Origin: Escherichia phage vB_EcoM-UFV11
Reading direction: 5' to 3' (one strand)
Length of the DNA: 64,000 nt
Sequence record: OP555982.1
Made by a program: the position numbers and the translations under genes. Positions within the stretch are counted from its first letter, which is position 1, and each line of letters opens with the position of its first letter. Of this stretch, positions 2,459 to 64,000 are shown piece by piece. The notes beneath the pieces were generated by a model that worked only from the letters and a program-made list of their open reading frames with translations, was not told the origin of the DNA and made no database searches.

Positions 2459-4274
2459 ACTGGCTCATCCATTCTTTACGAAGGTCAGCATTATCTCCCA
2501 TGAGCATTTCAAAAAGCTCTTTCCAATTCTCAGGAAGTTTAACAACATCATATACTGGGTTTTGAATCATCTCACGATATTCAGATTTTTCCAAAGAGCC
2601 AAGTCCTTTAATATAACGGATGCTATGTTTAGGTAGAGCATCTTTGGCACTCTCATATTCAGCGACTGTATAAAACCATTCTTGTTTTTTACCGACCTGA
2701 GCGATGATTACAGGAGTTTTGACAAAGCGAATTCGTCCTTGCTCAAACAATTCTGGCCAATTACTAAAAAATCCGAGCAGAGAAGGATAAATGCTTCCTA
2801 AACCATCATGGTCAGCATCGGTCATAATAGCAATATTATGATAATTCAAGTTTTCAGCTTTTTCACCAAGAACTAATCCAGTGATTGCGCAAATATCAAA
2901 CAGTTCTTTGTTTTTAAGCATATCAGCATATGACATACCCCAGCTATTAAGAACTTTACCACGCAATGGATAACCACCGTGAAGTTCTTTATCACGAACA
3001 TCAATAAGATATCCGATAGCAGAATCACCCTCAGTCAAGAAAAGAGTAGTGTCAGCATCTTTACCACAAAGATTCGCTTTGATATGTTTATGAACCTTAG
3101 CTTTAGAAGCCTTTTTAGCTGCTTTAGTTTCTGCTGCTTTTTCTGCCGCCAATTTACGAGCAAGGGCAGCTTCAATGATTGGCATTAAAATTGCTTCATT
3201 ATTTAGAATAGCGCGTGAAATCTTTTTAGCATCAAGTTGAATATGACTACGAATTTCGCCAAATGGAGAAGTCAAACGCTCTTTAGTTTGAGAATCAAAT
3301 CGCATGTTTTTCATATCACGGACAAACATAACGATAGTCAAACATTCTTTGACACGTGCTTTAGTCACATCAATTTTGAACTTACGTTTGATTTGTGGAA
3401 TAAGGTCTTCACAAATATCATCCATAACACAGTCAATGTGATGGCCACCATTCTTAGTGTGAATGTTATTCACATAAGTTAATTGACGAAATCCATCCGG
3501 TGAACGACCAACAGCAATAGAACAATTTTCTTGTTCTTGAACAATAGCATGTTCATCATACTGTCGTGCATATTTCTTAAAATTGCCCTGAACCTTTTTA
3601 CCATTAAAGGTAAATTGAATATCAGGATAAACAACAGCAAGTGTCTGGAGACGATCTAGTGTAATGTCAAGATAAACTTGGGACAGCTCATTAGTTTCAA
3701 ATGACATAAAATCTGGAATGAAAGTAACACGAGTTCCTTTCCATTTTCCAGGAATAGTTTCCCAGGATTTATTTTCCATGCCATTTGAACAACGAACTAC
3801 AATATTATTTTGACCATCGCCAGTTTCACCGACAAACATCACAGAAAAAATGTTAGTTAAACTAGAACCAACACCATTCATACCACCGGTGACGCGTTCT
3901 TTATCATCACCAAAGTTACCACCCGCTTTTGGAATAGTCCATGCAGCAACAGGACCAGGAATTTCTTCACCGGTAGGTGTTTTAACCATCGCTTGCGGAA
4001 TACCGCGACCGTTATCTTCAACTGTCACCTGATTATTTTTAATGGTAACATTAATTTTATTCGCGAATTTAAACTTAGTACGAATACCTTCATCGACTGA
4101 GTTATCGATAATTTCATCAATAAGCTTAACAAGACCAGGTACATACTGAACACTTTCCCATTTACCAAACAGAAAGCGCTCATGCATTTCATTAGCAGAA
4201 GAGCCAATGTACATGCCACTACGCTTTTTGATATGTTCAATATCGCTCAGAATTTTAATTTCATTCTTAATCAT
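2457..4274 (-). CDS. 39: DNA topoisomerase II large subunit, uninterrupted gene 39 form (605 aa)
   Basis: 606-codon ORF; first in-frame codon is GTG, ATG at 4272-4274 with SD GAGGA 6 nt upstream; N-term MIKNEIKILSDIEHIKKRSGMYIGS; GyrB-like motifs. Confidence 0.9.
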   Translation of the reverse strand: MIKNEIKILSDIEHIKKRSGMYIGSSANEMHERFLFGKWESVQYVPGLVKLIDEIIDNSVDEGIRTKFKFANKINVTIKNNQVTVEDNGRGIPQAMVKTPTGEEIPGPVAAWTIPKAGGNFGDDKERVTGGMNGVGSSLTNIFSVMFVGETGDGQNNIVVRCSNGMENKSWETIPGKWKGTRVTFIPDFMSFETNELSQVYLDITLDRLQTLAVVYPDIQFTFNGKKVQGNFKKYARQYDEHAIVQEQENCSIAVGRSPDGFRQLTYVNNIHTKNGGHHIDCVMDDICEDLIPQIKRKFKIDVTKARVKECLTIVMFVRDMKNMRFDSQTKERLTSPFGEIRSHIQLDAKKISRAILNNEAILMPIIEAALARKLAAEKAAETKAAKKASKAKVHKHIKANLCGKDADTTLFLTEGDSAIGYLIDVRDKELHGGYPLRGKVLNSWGMSYADMLKNKELFDICAITGLVLGEKAENLNYHNIAIMTDADHDGLGSIYPSLLGFFSNWPELFEQGRIRFVKTPVIIAQVGKKQEWFYTVAEYESAKDALPKHSIRYIKGLGSLEKSEYREMIQNPVYDVVKLPENWKELFEMLMGDNADLRKEWMSQ

Positions 4275-15386: not shown

Positions 15387-15394
15387 TATTTATA
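15387..15394 (-). promoter_or_regulatory. T4 late promoter TATAAATA
   Basis: exact TATAAATA on minus strand ~32 nt upstream of soc ATG. Confidence 0.6.
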
Positions 15395-15536
15395 ACTTAC
15401 AATTTAGCGGCTTTCCAGAGTTGTTCAATAATCTCTTGGTCTATTTCTTTAGTTATTTCATTACGTAATAAAGCAGTAAGGGCTTTCGCCCTTTTCTTAT
15501 TCAACTTTTTGAGTTGGCGTTTATTTAAACGGGACA

Positions 15537-16055
15537 TTAATAACCTCGGTCTTGACGTGCGAAATTTTCAGCATTTTTCAGATAATAAAGTTTAAAGATT
15601 TCTTCTGCTGTAAGACCAAGACCCTGGAACATATTCAGAACGAAATGAAGAATATCAATCATTTCAAATTTAATTTCTAACTGGTCTTGTGGAGACAAAT
15701 CAGTAATCAGAGTTTCACGACGTTCACCATGCTGCGACTTCCAAGGTTTCCATACAGCAGATGCGTCTTTTTCACCATTACTCATACCACCAAGAGAAGT
15801 CAGAAGTTCACGGAATTCATCGTCAATATAATCTTTCTGATTACGCAACCAATCAACAACTTCACCGGCAGTAGCTAAGTCATCAGGATGACGATTATAT
15901 TCAGGTTTATCTTTAGCTAAACGAACCTGCAAAGATTTCTGCATATCAAGCATTACCTGCAGCGGGTCTTTTTCATCGCCGAGAATATCCCAATATTCAT
16001 TTTGAGCTTTATCAGCGCCTTCAATCAGTTGTGAACATTCGTTAAAGTAAGCCAT
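15537..16055 (-). CDS. 56: dCTPase/dUTPase gp56 (172 aa)
   Basis: ORF track begins at upstream GTG; ATG at 16053-16055 gives MAYFNECSQLIEGADKAQNEYWDILGD, T4 gp56-like. Confidence 0.85.
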   Translation of the reverse strand: MAYFNECSQLIEGADKAQNEYWDILGDEKDPLQVMLDMQKSLQVRLAKDKPEYNRHPDDLATAGEVVDWLRNQKDYIDDEFRELLTSLGGMSNGEKDASAVWKPWKSQHGERRETLITDLSPQDQLEIKFEMIDILHFVLNMFQGLGLTAEEIFKLYYLKNAENFARQDRGY

Positions 16056-16126
16056 TATTTTTCCTTTCAATTCATGGGTTAGTAGATTAATTATACAATA
16101 AATATATAAAGCAATAAGGAGGACAT

Positions 16127-16327
16127 ATGGTACAAAAATTAATGGCACTTGTTAATGCCATCAAAGGTAATAAGAAACGTATAGCTTTTACTATTTCTGC
16201 TATGGTAGGAATTTTACTCTGGAACTTTATTTTATCACCAATTGCAATTGCGCATGGTGTTAATATTCCAGTAGTTACTCTTGATACATTCGTAGATCTA
16301 GCATTTGCTTTAGTTGGGTTGATTTAA
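16127..16327 (+). CDS. hypothetical small membrane protein (plus strand)
   Basis: 66-aa hydrophobic ORF; strong SD AAGGAGG 5 nt before ATG; between 56 and 61. Confidence 0.5.
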   Translation: MVQKLMALVNAIKGNKKRIAFTISAMVGILLWNFILSPIAIAHGVNIPVVTLDTFVDLAFALVGLI

Positions 16328-17352
16328 ATCTTAGCATATTTAGATAGCCGCATTTTAGCCATCAACCCCTGGGCAATATTATTTTTCATATATTCCATAA
16401 TTTGTTCAGGGGTTGCACCTTCCTTTCTAATCATATCATTAACATCTTTAGATTTCCAGGGAGATTTATCCCAAAACATAACCCTTTCTCCTGCATCAAC
16501 TAATTTAGTCATTCGTTTGATAGTGTCAGGGTGACGAGGTTCATTATCTAAAACCCACACTCGTCTATCTTTAAATGGAACAATTTCTAGGTCTAATTGA
16601 CCACCCGTAATAGCTATACCATTTTCAATAAAAAGTGAATCTATAGGTCCTTCTAGAACATATACATCGCCATCTTTAACTCGTTCGACTCCATAGATTT
16701 TTGTTGCCTCAGGATAAGCTTTAATGGTGATATATTTTTGAGGAGCATTTTTCTTTAATGCACGCCCTTGAAACGACTCGGCTTTTCCGTTAGCATTATA
16801 AATTGGAATAACAAGACGAGGCTCAGGTATTTCCTTTTTATATGTTCCCGGTGCTATGCTATTAACCAATTTAGGCCATTCGGTTGTAAACCAAAGATAT
16901 TTCCATTTATCCTTTGGAATACAACGAGCTTTTACGTATTTTATAATTGGATGGTCTTCCGCCAGTTTATCTAATCTAACACATGACGGAAGAGATTTAA
17001 TTATTTTCTTCTCAGGTTGTTTAGGAAGTTCTTTAGGTTTTTCTACTGGACGACTTTTACCTTTTTCTTTTCTTATTTCAAAGATATACTCACGATATAA
17101 ATCAGGTTCAAACTCCTTTAAATATATTCCGATTGGTGCGTGATAGTTACAGTTATAACAATGAATATTTCCTTCATTATTATCACCATAATACCATCCA
17201 CGAGCTTTATTCTGGTCGGTTTTTGAATCTCCACAAACGGGGCATCTAAACCGCAATTTAAAAGTTGAACTATTATTTACTTGTGTGAATTTAGGTAAAT
17301 GAGCCAATGCACGATACGCAAACTCATTATCAATCCAAGGTATTGATGACAT
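16324..17352 (-). CDS. 61: DNA primase gp61 (342 aa)
   Basis: 342-aa ORF; zinc-ribbon CPVCGDSK...CYNCNYH and TOPRIM-like region. Confidence 0.93.
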   Translation of the reverse strand: MSSIPWIDNEFAYRALAHLPKFTQVNNSSTFKLRFRCPVCGDSKTDQNKARGWYYGDNNEGNIHCYNCNYHAPIGIYLKEFEPDLYREYIFEIRKEKGKSRPVEKPKELPKQPEKKIIKSLPSCVRLDKLAEDHPIIKYVKARCIPKDKWKYLWFTTEWPKLVNSIAPGTYKKEIPEPRLVIPIYNANGKAESFQGRALKKNAPQKYITIKAYPEATKIYGVERVKDGDVYVLEGPIDSLFIENGIAITGGQLDLEIVPFKDRRVWVLDNEPRHPDTIKRMTKLVDAGERVMFWDKSPWKSKDVNDMIRKEGATPEQIMEYMKNNIAQGLMAKMRLSKYAKI

Positions 17353-17354
17353 TT

Positions 17355-17519
17355 TTACTCTTCTTTTTCTTTAGATTCCTCTTTTTTCTTTTTAGGAATC
17401 TGTTCAGGACCTTTATTTACTACAGCACCTGATGTTGTTCCAGTAGAGATATTTTCAGGATTACCACCTGAATCTCCAGCAACCATATCTTCTTTAATAA
17501 ATTCTTTATATGTTTTCAT
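17355..17519 (-). CDS. small protein with internal-protein-like N-terminus MKTYKEFIKE
   Basis: 55-aa ORF, Lys/Glu-rich tail, stop 3 nt before gene 61 ATG. Confidence 0.45.
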   Translation of the reverse strand: MKTYKEFIKEDMVAGDSGGNPENISTGTTSGAVVNKGPEQIPKKKKEESKEKEE

Positions 17520-17520
17520 A

Positions 17521-17877
17521 TTAACCTCTATTCATAAAAGCATTAAAAATTTGGTCATCAATCGATGGAATAGCAACTTTTTCTGCATCATTTAGCAAAT
17601 CATTAATTTCATCAGATAGCATAACACATGTACCTTTATTTCCTGTAATTGTTACTGCACAATTACGAACGTTTTCTTTATTAAATTTTAGGTTAATATT
17701 TTCGTAATGAAAATCCTTTAATGCTGAATATATTTTTAAAATAAAATTGTCTTTTACTACAATAAACCCAACCTCACTATTAAAACGTGGTTCATGGAAA
17801 CTGTAATAAACCTTTTCATCTATAAAATCGTATGAAATTTTTTCCATTTTTAAATATGAAAATTCAGAACTATACAT
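17521..17877 (-). CDS. hypothetical protein, paralog of 17879-18520
   Basis: 118-aa ORF; C-terminus SIDDQIFNAFMNRG shared with neighbour. Confidence 0.55.
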   Translation of the reverse strand: MYSSEFSYLKMEKISYDFIDEKVYYSFHEPRFNSEVGFIVVKDNFILKIYSALKDFHYENINLKFNKENVRNCAVTITGNKGTCVMLSDEINDLLNDAEKVAIPSIDDQIFNAFMNRG

Positions 17878-17878
17878 A

Positions 17879-18520
17879 TTAACCTTTATTCATAAAAGCA
17901 TTAAAAATTTGATCGTCAATAGAAACTTTTACTTTAGGATGTTCTTCAAACGGTAATTCATATCCACATATTACAATTTTGTGATCGATACCAAAATACA
18001 CAGAAGCAATATGATTAATATTATTTTCAGTGAAATCTAAATCAACATCAATATCTTTTTGACTAACGCTCAAAGGATAATTAATACGAATAATTCGATT
18101 ATCTTTAACAAAGATTCCACCGACATACTCTGTGTTGCGTTTAAAGTTTACACGTTTCCTAAATGAAAAATATTCAGGTTCTTTATGAGCCCGACTCATA
18201 GGACACAATGAGTAGCTAGAATAAGAGATGTCAAATCCTACACCTTCAATATGAGCCAACGTGTCATGATTAAACCAATTATAATCATACGCCAAATCCA
18301 TTATATTGTAATATGTGAAAGGCACCGGATTAACATCATATATTGTACCTTTAAAATCTGCCCAGGCAACGATTTCATTATCTTTAACAATTACAAAAAT
18401 TGTGCCAATAAGATATCCACGGTTATTTTCATCAGGCGTTATATTATAACATTGTGCATCAGGAAATTTACCGTATTTAAACGGTGGATTTTTGTGCATA
18501 TAATAAATCATATTATTCAC
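17879..18520 (-). CDS. hypothetical protein
   Basis: 213-aa ORF; C-terminus VSIDDQIFNAFMNKG. Confidence 0.55.
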   Translation of the reverse strand: MNNMIYYMHKNPPFKYGKFPDAQCYNITPDENNRGYLIGTIFVIVKDNEIVAWADFKGTIYDVNPVPFTYYNIMDLAYDYNWFNHDTLAHIEGVGFDISYSSYSLCPMSRAHKEPEYFSFRKRVNFKRNTEYVGGIFVKDNRIIRINYPLSVSQKDIDVDLDFTENNINHIASVYFGIDHKIVICGYELPFEEHPKVKVSIDDQIFNAFMNKG

Positions 18521-18806
18521 CTGTGATTTCGGTTACGATATCTTTGTTATCAAAATTAGGGTCACAATACAAAACATAGTTATACTGCATCACACCACCT
18601 GATTTAAGCTGTTTTTGTACTTCAACTTTCATATTGGGACGATCACGCTCAACGATATTCATAATATCCGCTTCAATTTGAGTTTCAACTTCAGTCTGAT
18701 CTGCAGTCATAGACCATTCACACAAATCTTTATCATAACCTGCCATAGCAGGCTGAGCAGCACAAGAAGCTAAAGCAAAAATTGCAGCAAAGATAAATTT
18801 TTTCAT
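18513..18806 (-). CDS. sp: Spackle periplasmic protein Sp (97 aa)
   Basis: 97-aa ORF with signal peptide MKKFIFAAIFALASCAAQPAMA. Confidence 0.75.
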   Translation of the reverse strand: MKKFIFAAIFALASCAAQPAMAGYDKDLCEWSMTADQTEVETQIEADIMNIVERDRPNMKVEVQKQLKSGGVMQYNYVLYCDPNFDNKDIVTEITGE

Positions 18807-18832
18807 GATAATCTCCTCAGTAGTTTATGTTT

Positions 18833-18864
18833 ATATAGTATCTCAATTTCCAACAAAAGTAAAC
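18833..18864 (-). promoter_or_regulatory. T4-type early promoter
   Basis: minus strand GTTTAC ... TACTATATAA upstream of sp. Confidence 0.45.
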
Positions 18865-18866
18865 AG

Positions 18867-19124
18867 CTATTTTAAAACTTCTGCATAATCACATGTTACA
18901 AACTGTTTCTCTAACTTGACGATTTTACGAAAATACCTTTTACACTGACGAATCTGTCGCTTCGTAGGACGTACAGCAAACTTAATAAATTCCACTCGAC
19001 CAAATGGAGGACTTTCTTCTGCTGGAATATCTAGCACCAATTCCCACGTATCTGCAATAAGTGCTTTGAATTGCGTATTTTTCCTGACGTTATACGGAGT
19101 AGGTTTAAATAAAACAATATGCAT
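18867..19124 (-). CDS. hypothetical protein
   Basis: start moved to ATG at 19124 with SD GAGGA; avoids overlap with dmd. Confidence 0.5.
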   Translation of the reverse strand: MHIVLFKPTPYNVRKNTQFKALIADTWELVLDIPAEESPPFGRVEFIKFAVRPTKRQIRQCKRYFRKIVKLEKQFVTCDYAEVLK

Positions 19125-31514: not shown

Positions 31515-31522
31515 TATAAATA
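31515..31522 (+). promoter_or_regulatory. T4 late promoter TATAAATA (plus strand)
   Basis: exact TATAAATA ~34 nt upstream of HNH gene ATG. Confidence 0.5.
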
Positions 31523-43884: not shown

Positions 43885-43925
43885 AATAAACCCTTACCTT
43901 AAATAGATAAGGGTATTTATTATTT

Positions 43926-57359: not shown

Positions 57360-57401
57360 ATATACCCCTTTAGTTAGATAAACCTATTTATAACTTTTGC
57401 A

Positions 57402-61380: not shown

Positions 61381-61742
61381 TACAAACTCTCGGTAAAGGT
61401 ACGAGCGATAACGTCGCGCTGCTGTTCCGGAGTCAGAGAGTTAAAGCGAACTGCATAACCGGATACACGGATGGTCAGCTGCGGATATTTTTCCGGATGC
61501 TTAACTGCATCTTCCAGAGTTTCACGACGCAGAACGTTAACGTTCAGGTGTTGACCACCTTCAATTTTAACTGTAGGCTGTTGCTCAATTTCAATTTCAC
61601 GGGCATGCAAACCGTAGAAAATTTCTGGGTCTACAAAAGAGTCCTCTTTAAAAGTTTTAGAGACAATAATTCGTGCTTGAATACCATCTTCAAAATAAAT
61701 AGTACCTTTATGCGTGCCTTCAAGAATTTGATATGCTTTCAT
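61380..61742 (-). CDS. autonomous glycyl radical cofactor (GrcA/YfiD-like)
   Basis: 120-aa ORF; glycyl-radical motif [13 protein letters not shown]; GC-rich 3' half. Confidence 0.85.
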
Positions 61743-62079: not shown

Positions 62080-62615
62080 TGCATTCCGATTATGAAAAAC
62101 TGTGGACGAGTAATACCACCAATGCAACATTTAATATTACAGCAGCAGTGTACAGTTTCAATATGGACACTATAAATCTTATCCATATCAGGAGATTTGA
62201 CAGGTTCATCAATTATATACAAAATTCGCGAAAGCGATAAACCTCTGAACTTGCTTCCTTTATTACCAATAAAACTGCGCACAGAATCAGCAAATAAACG
62301 AAAACGTATATCATCATTAGAATAACGCGAAAATTCCTTTTTAATGTTATTTGAAGAAATTTTAGCGTAAGCTGAAGTATTAGAAAGAACAATAACTGTT
62401 CCGCCATCATACAACCAATTAGCGGCAAAATTAGTTACTGCAGTTGATTTACCGGATTGACGTCCACCATCTAGTCGAAGTGTGCAATACTGCTTAAGTA
62501 AGTCTTCAAATGGTGGGATATAATCGTTTTTACAAATTTCTTCTACTCTAGCGTCAGAATGGTGTGTAAAAGCATTCATCAGGGATAGATAAGGACCAGT
62601 TAAAAATGTTCTCAT
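62076..62615 (-). CDS. small P-loop NTPase
   Basis: Walker A GGRQSGKST, Walker B ILYIIDEP; start set at ATG 62615 with SD AGAGAGAA. Confidence 0.45.
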   Translation of the reverse strand: MRTFLTGPYLSLMNAFTHHSDARVEEICKNDYIPPFEDLLKQYCTLRLDGGRQSGKSTAVTNFAANWLYDGGTVIVLSNTSAYAKISSNNIKKEFSRYSNDDIRFRLFADSVRSFIGNKGSKFRGLSLSRILYIIDEPVKSPDMDKIYSVHIETVHCCCNIKCCIGGITRPQFFIIGMQ

Positions 62616-62768
62616 TTTATTCTCTCTAAATTTGGGCCATTCCATGGCGCATGAATTGTCCATTTCTGTATTTACCCATTACCGCACTTGGGCTCGACCT
62701 TATTACAGGTTGGCGGGAATCCCTCACAGAATCATGAGGTCCAGCTTGTTCCCATATTTCTTATTTGC

Positions 62769-63242
62769 TTATTTGAATGATTTAACGTACTGAATAGAAC
62801 CTTTACTATTCACAAAGGCAATTTTACCATTTTTGTTATACATAGTAGCAGTACGTTGATAGCCATAAGTTTGTTTACCAGATTGATAACCAACTAATGC
62901 GAAATTATCTTCACCCATTTTATTCTGTTTAGCGCGAATGCGTTCATGACCATGTGCCATAAGAACCTTAGCATCACCAGTTGCAATGGACCGACGAGTT
63001 TTTTCATCTTCAACTGTATTAACAAAGTCGTCAAATGAATCAAATTTAGCATGAGATTTATTATACAGTTTTCCATCTACTGCATAATTATATCCTTGTA
63101 CATCCATCTCAACTTCTGTACCATCATCTAATACCGCAGTAATTTTCTGTCCTTTTTTAAATTTCAAAAGATCAGTAAAAGATTCAGCAATAATTTGAGA
63201 ATTAATAGCTGCTTCAGTAATAAATTCTTTATACGTTTTCAT
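62769..63242 (-). CDS. capsid internal protein (IPIII-like)
   Basis: 157-aa ORF; N-terminal MKTYKEFITEA as in T4 internal-protein targeting sequences. Confidence 0.65.
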   Translation of the reverse strand: MKTYKEFITEAAINSQIIAESFTDLLKFKKGQKITAVLDDGTEVEMDVQGYNYAVDGKLYNKSHAKFDSFDDFVNTVEDEKTRRSIATGDAKVLMAHGHERIRAKQNKMGEDNFALVGYQSGKQTYGYQRTATMYNKNGKIAFVNSKGSIQYVKSFK

Positions 63243-63258
63243 GTGTATCCTTTAATTT

Positions 63259-63576
63259 TTATTCTTTAGGGAAGTTTTTAGAATATGCATCATAAAGCTT
63301 ATTTCCAATACGGCGGAAAACTCTAGCCGCAAAACGATTTTCTGGGTTTTTAATCATGATTTGCATCATATAAGTACCCGCGTCAGAAAGAGCTTCTTCA
63401 TAGTACCCGTTAATTTCTTTAAGAGTCCTACGTTTACCACCAGGACCATCAACAGTGATTTTCCATTTACCTGTAGAAGTGCGACTTGGCGGTTCAACTT
63501 GTTCAATCCAGATATAACCGCCTTCTACACGCTGTCCTGCAACAGATTCTGCAATAAATTCTTTATACGTTTTCAT
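63259..63576 (-). CDS. capsid internal protein (IPII-like)
   Basis: 105-aa ORF; N-terminal MKTYKEFIAES; 5' DNA near-identical to neighbour. Confidence 0.65.
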   Translation of the reverse strand: MKTYKEFIAESVAGQRVEGGYIWIEQVEPPSRTSTGKWKITVDGPGGKRRTLKEINGYYEEALSDAGTYMMQIMIKNPENRFAARVFRRIGNKLYDAYSKNFPKE

Positions 63577-63612
63577 GTGTTTCCTTTAAATATTTTAATT
63601 AGTAACTGTGAA

Positions 63613-63643
63613 TATACTATCACAGTTTTAGGAGAAAGTAAAC
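63613..63643 (-). promoter_or_regulatory. T4-type early promoter
   Basis: minus strand GTTTACTTTCTCCTAAAACTGTGATAGTAT. Confidence 0.45.
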
Positions 63644-63647
63644 AACT

Positions 63648-64000
<353 letters not shown>

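Follow-up and report, generated by a model that had tools for sequence, protein, structure and literature searches.

We describe here a 66-amino-acid (aa) open reading frame (ORF) on the plus strand of Escherichia phage vB_EcoM-UFV11 (OP555982.1), located between genes 56 and 61 in the stretch of 64,000 nucleotides (nt) that was analyzed (hereafter, the window). The ORF starts with ATG, occupies positions 16127..16327 (stop codon included), and its predicted product is MVQKLMALVNAIKGNKKRIAFTISAMVGILLWNFILSPIAIAHGVNIPVVTLDTFVDLAFALVGLI. We are fairly confident that it is a genuine protein-coding gene of family PHROG 2024, which the T4 reference annotation has missed and which is predicted to have a late role in the membrane. 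As an ORF it is not new: it belongs to an already catalogued gene family of T4-like phages, and RB32ORF030w, from which nothing in its sequence differs, is the same gene, labeled "hypothetical protein" in RB32, RB14, RB51, RB68, wV7, AR1, and hundreds of Tevenvirinae records. In NCBI, the window protein itself is entered as hypothetical protein RB68_032 and similar names, and has been seen on 154 contigs. Our sequence comparisons add its presence without annotation in T4, the signs of selection on it, its occurrence in at least seven genera, and a conserved late-type promoter and Shine-Dalgarno (SD) sequence. We regard the finding as real but largely ordinary, and of modest interest.

A sequence-only reading of the window had placed a hydrophobic 66-aa plus-strand ORF with a strong ribosome-binding site in an interval of ~270 bp between genes 56 and 61, and our measurements agree with it. 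More specifically, the spacer spans 16056-16327 (272 bp), the 19-residue Kyte-Doolittle maximum of the product is 2.02 (residues 23-41), and a perfect AAGGAGG lies at 16116..16122 (+), 4 nt before the ATG.

Conservation and purifying selection

By its length alone the ORF would not stand out, as 66 codons are not significant at 35% GC and the ORF list of the window contains many spurious ORFs of at least 60 aa. Because ORF length is unremarkable in such AT-rich DNA, gene status must rest on comparative evidence. We found that residues 2-66 match positions 1-65 of the 65 positions of the PHROG 2024 profile (expect value [E] = 1.5e-31), and that tblastn locates the ORF in 692 phage records, 502 of them at no less than 90% identity and 190 at <60% (44-56% among the matches listed); the inspected records were Tequatrovirus in the former group, and Mosigvirus and Gaprivervirus in the latter. 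More distant copies were found by searching with gp61 and then inspecting the DNA downstream of gene 61: in Dhakavirus, Marfavirus F48, Klebsiella phage Lion_ER11, and Kanagawavirus CIP9, an ORF of 63-66 aa occupies the corresponding position on the opposite strand. These copies are only 20-27% identical to the window protein; profile-profile comparison nevertheless gave a probability of 97% (E = 9.6e-11), and their matches to PHROG 2024 have E values from 1e-20 to 1e-28. Across all aligned copies, W32, N33, P38, G44, and P48 are invariant. The family is thereby represented in at least seven genera of T4-like phages, with every copy on the strand opposite gene 61 and by its 3' end.

The pattern of substitutions points in the same direction. 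Comparing the window with two Tequatrovirus loci (one of them HY03), we counted 11 synonymous and 4-5 non-synonymous differences, corresponding to a ratio of non-synonymous to synonymous substitution rates (dN/dS) of 0.10-0.12, and better-sampled pairs within Tequatrovirus gave ~0.06-0.2. Between genera, dS is saturated and dN is ~0.43. Family members retain a length of 63-66 aa and differ by conservative replacements, and no functional copy examined has a broken frame, while the upstream and flanking noncoding DNA is unalignable between genera.

These data bear on the possibility that the ORF is fortuitous and that the interval is a noncoding regulatory spacer serving the minus strand, with a gene 61 terminator and promoters of gene 56 or dam, near oriA. 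Such elements can be discerned. A hairpin followed by a T-run, resembling a terminator, lies on the minus strand at 16129..16164, ~160 nt downstream of gene 61 and inside codons 5-13 of the ORF; it is annotated in phage SA20RB. A middle-promoter-like element for gene 56 (GCTT-N13-TATAAT; 16090..16112, minus strand) is annotated at an identical sequence in the same phage (locus coordinates 1691-1713), the 1984 record X01416 marks a putative dam promoter in the corresponding spacer of T4, and the curated T4 annotation has no gene here. A noncoding spacer would not, however, account for 45-56% aa identity in genera in which the nucleotides, the hairpin, and the flanks are not conserved (the hairpin is conserved in Tequatrovirus, whereas in Mosigvirus its nucleotide sequence is not, although the protein is). 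Nor does it fit the dominance of synonymous changes within Tequatrovirus, a frame that stays intact in the functional copies of seven genera even where the ORF and gene 61 are not adjacent, or the SD and late-promoter core that accompany every promoter-proximal copy. We therefore consider a fortuitous ORF very improbable. Judged by sequence comparison, conservation, purifying selection, and conserved expression signals together put the ORF beyond chance.

Outside T4-like phages the family has no evident relatives. A phmmer search of 1.8 billion representative proteins returned only T4-like phage homologues and three long repetitive proteins (P0032, P0036, and P0037), which we judged to be compositional or short-motif artefacts; the P0037 repeats, LLWN[FY]TTG…SSPAVANGVVY, resemble LLWNFILSPIAIAHGV, a likeness we attribute to chance or composition. 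A scan of IMG/VR yielded only 5 near-identical loci, and a motif scan of this genome found no second copy or paralogue of the ORF. For this and other genome-wide statements, we combined the window with the remaining record of vB_EcoM-UFV09 (MZ291552.2), an RB32-like Tequatrovirus that is 100% identical to the window over the compared stretches (1-1500, 15900-16500, and 62500-64000), as are its three sister isolates.

Several variants of the locus were seen. Gaprivervirus VR25 carries two tandem paralogues (VR25_031/032; locus coordinates 1595-1792 and 1801-2001), one T4-type and one Dhakavirus-type, and the second lacks a late motif upstream, so that the pair looks like an operon. TH40 retains a frameshifted remnant of a second copy (locus coordinates ~2200-2420), and in DK-13 the small ORF and gene 61 are separated by an inserted homing endonuclease gene. 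The family is not annotated consistently: the gene is unmarked in the deposited records of F48 (locus 2511-2711, minus strand), T4 (NC_000866), and T2 (LC348380), and tblastn matches in VR7, IME08, and others are likewise unannotated.

Late promoter motif and Shine-Dalgarno sequence

Upstream of the ORF, the octamer AATAAATA occupies 16097..16104 (+), 22 nt before the ATG, and matches the T4 late promoter consensus (TATAAATA, at -13..-6) at 7 of 8 positions. In the sequence-only reading this element had been called only an approximate match to a late promoter. That is correct as far as the consensus goes, but it understates the element, which is very probably a real late promoter given that its core is kept across seven genera and depleted elsewhere. 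More specifically, NATAAATA occurs 12-22 nt before the ATG in every promoter-proximal copy examined from the seven genera, and it is kept in contexts that share no upstream homology (56-adjacent, dam-adjacent, and T2-type). The SD is similarly constant: AAGGAGG has only 2 copies in the 64-kilobase (kb) window and lies at optimal spacing from the ATG here, and an SD of the AAGGA(G)G/AGGAGG type is kept in all promoter-proximal homologues examined. From the position of the octamer, transcription would start near 16110 and leave a 5' untranslated region of ~17 nt.

Depletion of the motif elsewhere is pronounced. On both strands of the window, ATAAATA occurs at 6 sites, compared with 40.6 ± 7.1 in shuffled sequences (~7-fold depletion), namely, 15387-15393(-), 16098-16104(+), 31516-31522(+), 43914-43920(-), 57385-57391(-), and 61695-61701(+). 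Five of the six lie 22-33 nt upstream of an SD-led ORF, the four besides the 66-aa ORF at 25-33 nt; the ORFs behind these sites are soc, the 66-aa ORF, gene 49, a plus-strand ORF resembling HNH homing endonucleases (238 aa), and a minus-strand 70-aa ORF. No obvious ORF follows the site at 61694 (+), which may drive an antisense transcript. Genome-wide, we counted 53 sites of NATAAATA against ~121 expected, and the exact octamer AATAAATA is also found ahead of holin t, gene 15, and gene 49. Orientation adds little to this. The ORF is surrounded by minus-strand early and middle genes, and most T4 late units are likewise on the plus strand (clockwise); as some T4 late genes, e.g., soc, are on the minus strand, plus orientation is a weak criterion for lateness.

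Some observations weigh against a late protein-coding gene. The first base of the octamer (-13) deviates from the consensus T, being A in this phage, Mosigvirus, and Dhakavirus, G in T4 and T2, and C in Gaprivervirus and Lion_ER11; F48 and CIP9 have T and thus a perfect TATAAATA. Nolan et al. 2006 (PMC1524935), who placed the T4 late consensus at -13 to -6, reported A or T at this base for most T4-like phages in their study. In addition, the minus-strand hairpin and the overlapping middle promoter could explain some of the nucleotide conservation within Tequatrovirus. Krischvirus GEC-3S and Karamvirus EnC15 lack the gene at this locus, which indicates that it is not universally required. Lastly, searches of Pfam, NCBIfam, PADLOC, and PDB gave no match to a characterized family, which makes any functional assignment a guess.

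Convergence with gene 61

The TAA of the ORF overlaps the stop codon of the convergent gene 61 by 4 nt, within the palindrome GATTTAAATC. An overlap of 1-4 nt is also found in Tequatrovirus, Mosigvirus, Dhakavirus, Marfavirus, Kanagawavirus, and VR25; the exception is provided by some Gapriverviruses, in which the two genes are separated by a pseudogene remnant or a homing endonuclease gene. Because the two stop codons overlap, a transcript from the candidate late promoter would have to run antisense into gene 61. One could then propose that the function lies in the RNA, with the convergent late promoter producing an antisense RNA, or a transcriptional collision, that shuts down primase late in infection, and the peptide being secondary. 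An overlap of 1-4 nt leaves no room for a terminator and makes antisense read-through into gene 61 unavoidable, and we found no convincing intrinsic plus-strand terminator just downstream of the ORF. Antisense transcription alone, on the other hand, would not keep a frame of 63-66 codons, the W/N/P/G/P residues, a consensus SD, and a low dN/dS, and in DK-13 and TH40 the gene is intact though other DNA separates it from gene 61. A stem-loop further downstream, which might have ended or stabilized the transcript, shows no covariation. We consider a primarily RNA-level function improbable; protein and antisense roles are not mutually exclusive.

The stem-loop in question (CAACCCCUG…CAGGGGUUG; 16363-16416, plus strand) lies 36 nt past the stop codon of the ORF, within the 3' end of gene 61. 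The folded 111-nt segment has a predicted energy of -24.9 kcal/mol (z = -3.0), and in Mosigvirus z is also ~-3 with the stem at the same place. We rejected it as a terminator or stabilizer of the late transcript, as compensatory changes are missing from the alignment fold and the stem is disrupted in T2. The gp61 codons (ATPEQ / AQGL) probably give rise to it incidentally.

Predicted membrane topology of the product

Residues 1-18 of the product are basic (net charge, +5) and are followed by a predicted transmembrane helix at codons 19-42 (16181..16252, plus strand), which is indicated by hydropathy and by an AlphaFold2 helix at residues 16-42 (block mean predicted local distance difference test score [pLDDT], 82-86) and carries the invariant W32, N33, and P38. 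The remaining part, HGVNIPVVTLDTFVDLAFALVGLI (codons 43-66; 16253..16324, plus strand), is predicted to be periplasmic; it has a net charge of -2, the invariant G44 and P48, and a short helix at 52-63. In the whole AlphaFold2 model, helices are at 2-14, 16-42, and 52-63, and the mean pLDDT is 77.6. Among 34 unique family members, the net charge ranges from +1 to +6 in the N-terminal part and from 0 to -2 in the C-terminal part. Because this bias is present in all 34 sequences, the positive-inside rule predicts a cytoplasmic N terminus and an external C terminus (N-in/C-out), and the product is most likely, on these sequence features, an N-in/C-out inner-membrane micro-protein made late in infection.

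A signal peptidase I-like site may be present at the end of the helix. Most members have P-x-A-x-(A/S/T) before a conserved [HQNY]G, with P at -5, A at -3 in 28 of 34, and A/S/T at -1 in all 34, and the n-region is basic as in signal peptides; cleavage would release a peptide of ~24 aa. The h-region is, however, anchor-like in its length (~24 residues) and contains the invariant W-N, and Mosigvirus has L at -3, features which argue for an uncleaved anchor.

Searching viral structures with the AlphaFold2 model returned only family members (OE5505 and CIP9) and noise, and a helical hairpin this small carries little information for fold searching. For type I toxin-like peptides such as Ldr, a single family member matched PF13940 at E = 0.1, which is not significant.

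Comparison with holins and other envelope proteins

We also considered whether the product is a lysis protein of the holin, pinholin, or antiholin type. It is small and predicted to be membrane-embedded, its promoter is of the late type with the same octamer (AATAAATA) in front of holin t, and the homologue in phage OE5505 bears the UniRef/BFVD name "Holin", although this label is automatic and unsupported. T4 holin T and antiholin RI have N-in/C-out topology, which counts in favor of this assignment, whereas the known lysis genes of T4 (t, e, pseT.3/pseT.2, rI, and rIII) already form a complete set, which counts against it. We found no holin match in Pfam, PHROG, or NCBIfam at E ≤ 1. The product lacks the charged cytoplasmic C-terminal tail typical of holins; its C terminus is hydrophobic (...DLAFALVGLI) and the positive charges are N-terminal. 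The neighbors of the ORF are the dCTPase and primase genes, and the lysis genes are remote, at ~63.5 kb (e) and ~156.7 kb (t) in the genome. The second in-frame methionine (M6) is not conserved outside Tequatrovirus, and a dual-start M1/M6 motif of the holin/antiholin kind was rejected on that ground. Taken together, these data make a holin-type protein unlikely.

Comparison with individual systems gave the same picture. T and RI are late-expressed inner-membrane proteins with a single membrane pass, and they control the timing of lysis; the likeness to them consists of predicted topology, the late-type promoter, and restriction to T4-like phages. T (218 aa) and RI (97 aa), however, have folded periplasmic domains, whereas only ~24 residues of the ORF product would lie outside the membrane; they share no sequence or profile similarity with it, and the ORF is outside the lysis neighborhood. 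Class II holins and pinholins, such as S21-68 of phage 21 (~70 aa), resemble the product in size and in having two hydrophobic stretches (19-42 and 47-66 in the ORF). The second segment of the ORF product is, in contrast, modeled as a 12-residue helix with two Asp residues, too short to span the membrane, and the product has no charged C-terminal tail, conserved dual-start motif, or family match. T4 Imm, Sp (spackle), and Ac are also small envelope proteins encoded in the same early-region neighborhood (the sp homologue is at 18513..18806, minus strand). All three are encoded on the early (minus) strand, with early or middle expression, whereas the ORF lies on the late strand and has a late-type promoter in front of it; there is no sequence similarity.

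Proposed role in late infection

If the ORF is a late gene, as we favor, its expression might proceed as follows. After replication starts, gp55, gp33, and gp45 with host RNA polymerase would initiate ~6 nt downstream of AATAAATA, yielding a plus-strand mRNA with a leader of 17 nt and a consensus SD. The 66-aa product would insert in the inner membrane with its basic N-terminal helix in the cytoplasm, one helix (~19-42) across the membrane, and its tail in the periplasm; this 24-residue acidic/hydrophobic tail may be freed by signal peptidase at P-x-A-x-A. The invariant W-N...P...G...P residues occupy the loop and the outer half of the helix, and would therefore point to a specific interaction at or in the membrane's periplasmic face during late infection. 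We speculate that the role is in the envelope or in lysis timing rather than in DNA metabolism.

In its fuller form, the proposal is that an unrecognized late T4 gene supplies, as the 66-aa product or the ~24-aa peptide, a new late player in the envelope, with a transcript that is also antisense to gene 61; this we offer only tentatively. If true, the protein could modulate holin T and lysis inhibition, superinfection or membrane integrity, or membrane-based host defense, and the tandem paralogues VR25_031/032 would suggest a hetero-oligomeric membrane complex.

The T4 counterpart and the variable dam slot

T4 (NC_000866) has the same ORF at 17738..17938 (+), with 2 aa differences (97% protein identity) and the same AAGGAGG. 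There it sits in an unannotated gap of 309 bp between dam (16846..17625) and gene 61 (17935..18963), and it has no annotation in NC_000866, AF158101.6, or X01416. In a recent T4 assembly, Pyrodigal/pharokka does call the ORF and labels it PHROG 2024. The exact T4-reference variant of the protein has no NCBI or UniRef accession.

The interval had drawn attention in the sequence-only reading because T4 carries dam here, and the ORF was implied to stand in its place. The absence of dam was confirmed and could be extended to the genome: a tblastn search with T4 Dam, covering the window and the rest of the genome except 97 bp inside gene e, gave a best E of 1.6; the record parts outside the window have no methyltransferase annotation; and a scan for the [DNS]PP[YFW] motif found incidental matches only and no credible methyltransferase ORF. 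The same reading had held that its claim would fail if dam lay at another locus and relatives lacked the ORF; we found no dam in the genome and the ORF in relatives. The implied replacement, by contrast, did not hold. The junction does suggest one at first sight, as 20 bp (16096..16115) take the place of 899 bp in T4 (16826-17724; dam and flanks) and are followed by the SD of the ORF. In blastn alignments, however, window positions 15537-16095 correspond to T4 16270-16825 (76% identity), and 16116-16700, a block comprising the ORF and the start of gene 61, to T4 17725-18311 (97% identity). The ORF thus stays with gene 61, and dam and the ORF occur together in T4, T2, and HY03, on which ground we rejected a cassette swap; we give it a negligible probability. 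T4 Dam shares with the ORF product only the map position of its gene between genes 56 and 61; the two are not homologous, and Dam coexists with the ORF in T4 and is absent from this genome.

In T2 and HY03, a further ORF of ~181-186 aa on the minus strand separates dam from the small ORF, so that the slot between gene 56 and the ORF has three states: none here, dam in T4, and dam with the extra ORF in T2 and HY03. From this comparison, we conclude that the slot is variable and that the ORF is attached to gene 61. In the fetched loci, the extra ORF is at 550-1110 (HY03) and 565-1110 (T2), and it is absent from T4 and this phage. Dam at least 90% identical to that of T4 is encoded in 182 phage records, compared with 502 for the ORF at the same threshold, and the dam-less 56-ORF-61 arrangement was found in one piece in 396 records. 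The dam-less state is the majority state of sequenced Tequatroviruses and therefore an ordinary polymorphism; by these comparisons, absence of dam is an independent and common indel beside the ORF. Dam methylation is accordingly dispensable and missing from most sequenced Tequatroviruses, a result that matters less than the ORF.

Consequences of the missing annotation

T4 is among the most thoroughly annotated viruses, yet NC_000866 and AF158101 omit a conserved gene under selection, and because they do, studies relying on the reference gene list will have skipped it. CRISPRi-ART guide libraries, for instance, target annotated coding sequences (PMC11879866), and proteomics databases built from annotated proteins would likewise skip it. 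Trypsin-based proteomics would miss the product in any case, because the sequence offers only one convenient tryptic peptide (LMALVNAIK), the remainder being a hydrophobic fragment of 48 residues. Our literature search found no paper describing the ORF or its expression, and a T4 omics paper (PMC9697503) contains no occurrence of "antisense", "unannotated", or "dam". Adding the ORF to the T4 annotation could reveal a new envelope or lysis-related factor.

Neighboring genes and further features of the locus

The ORF is flanked on the minus strand by gene 56 (dCTPase/dUTPase; 15537..16055), which has Pfam and PHROG matches and 76% nucleotide identity to T4 gene 56, and by gene 61 (DNA primase; 16324..17352), which also has Pfam and PHROG matches. 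Both genes gave 97-100% matches to annotated phages. The mosaic boundary is sharp, with gene 56 being 76%, and the small ORF and gene 61 being 97%, identical to T4. On the other side of gene 56, T4 has the adjoining SegF homing endonuclease gene, and small ORFs (15397..15537 and neighbors) are found here instead. The middle-promoter-like element of gene 56 has the late motif, in reverse complement, within its spacer, which would make the two a compact divergent promoter pair. With respect to MZ291552.2, window coordinates equal those of the record minus 1 at 16 kb and plus 98 at 62.5 kb, and the window accordingly contains ~99 bp extra relative to that record, somewhere within 16.5-62.5 kb.

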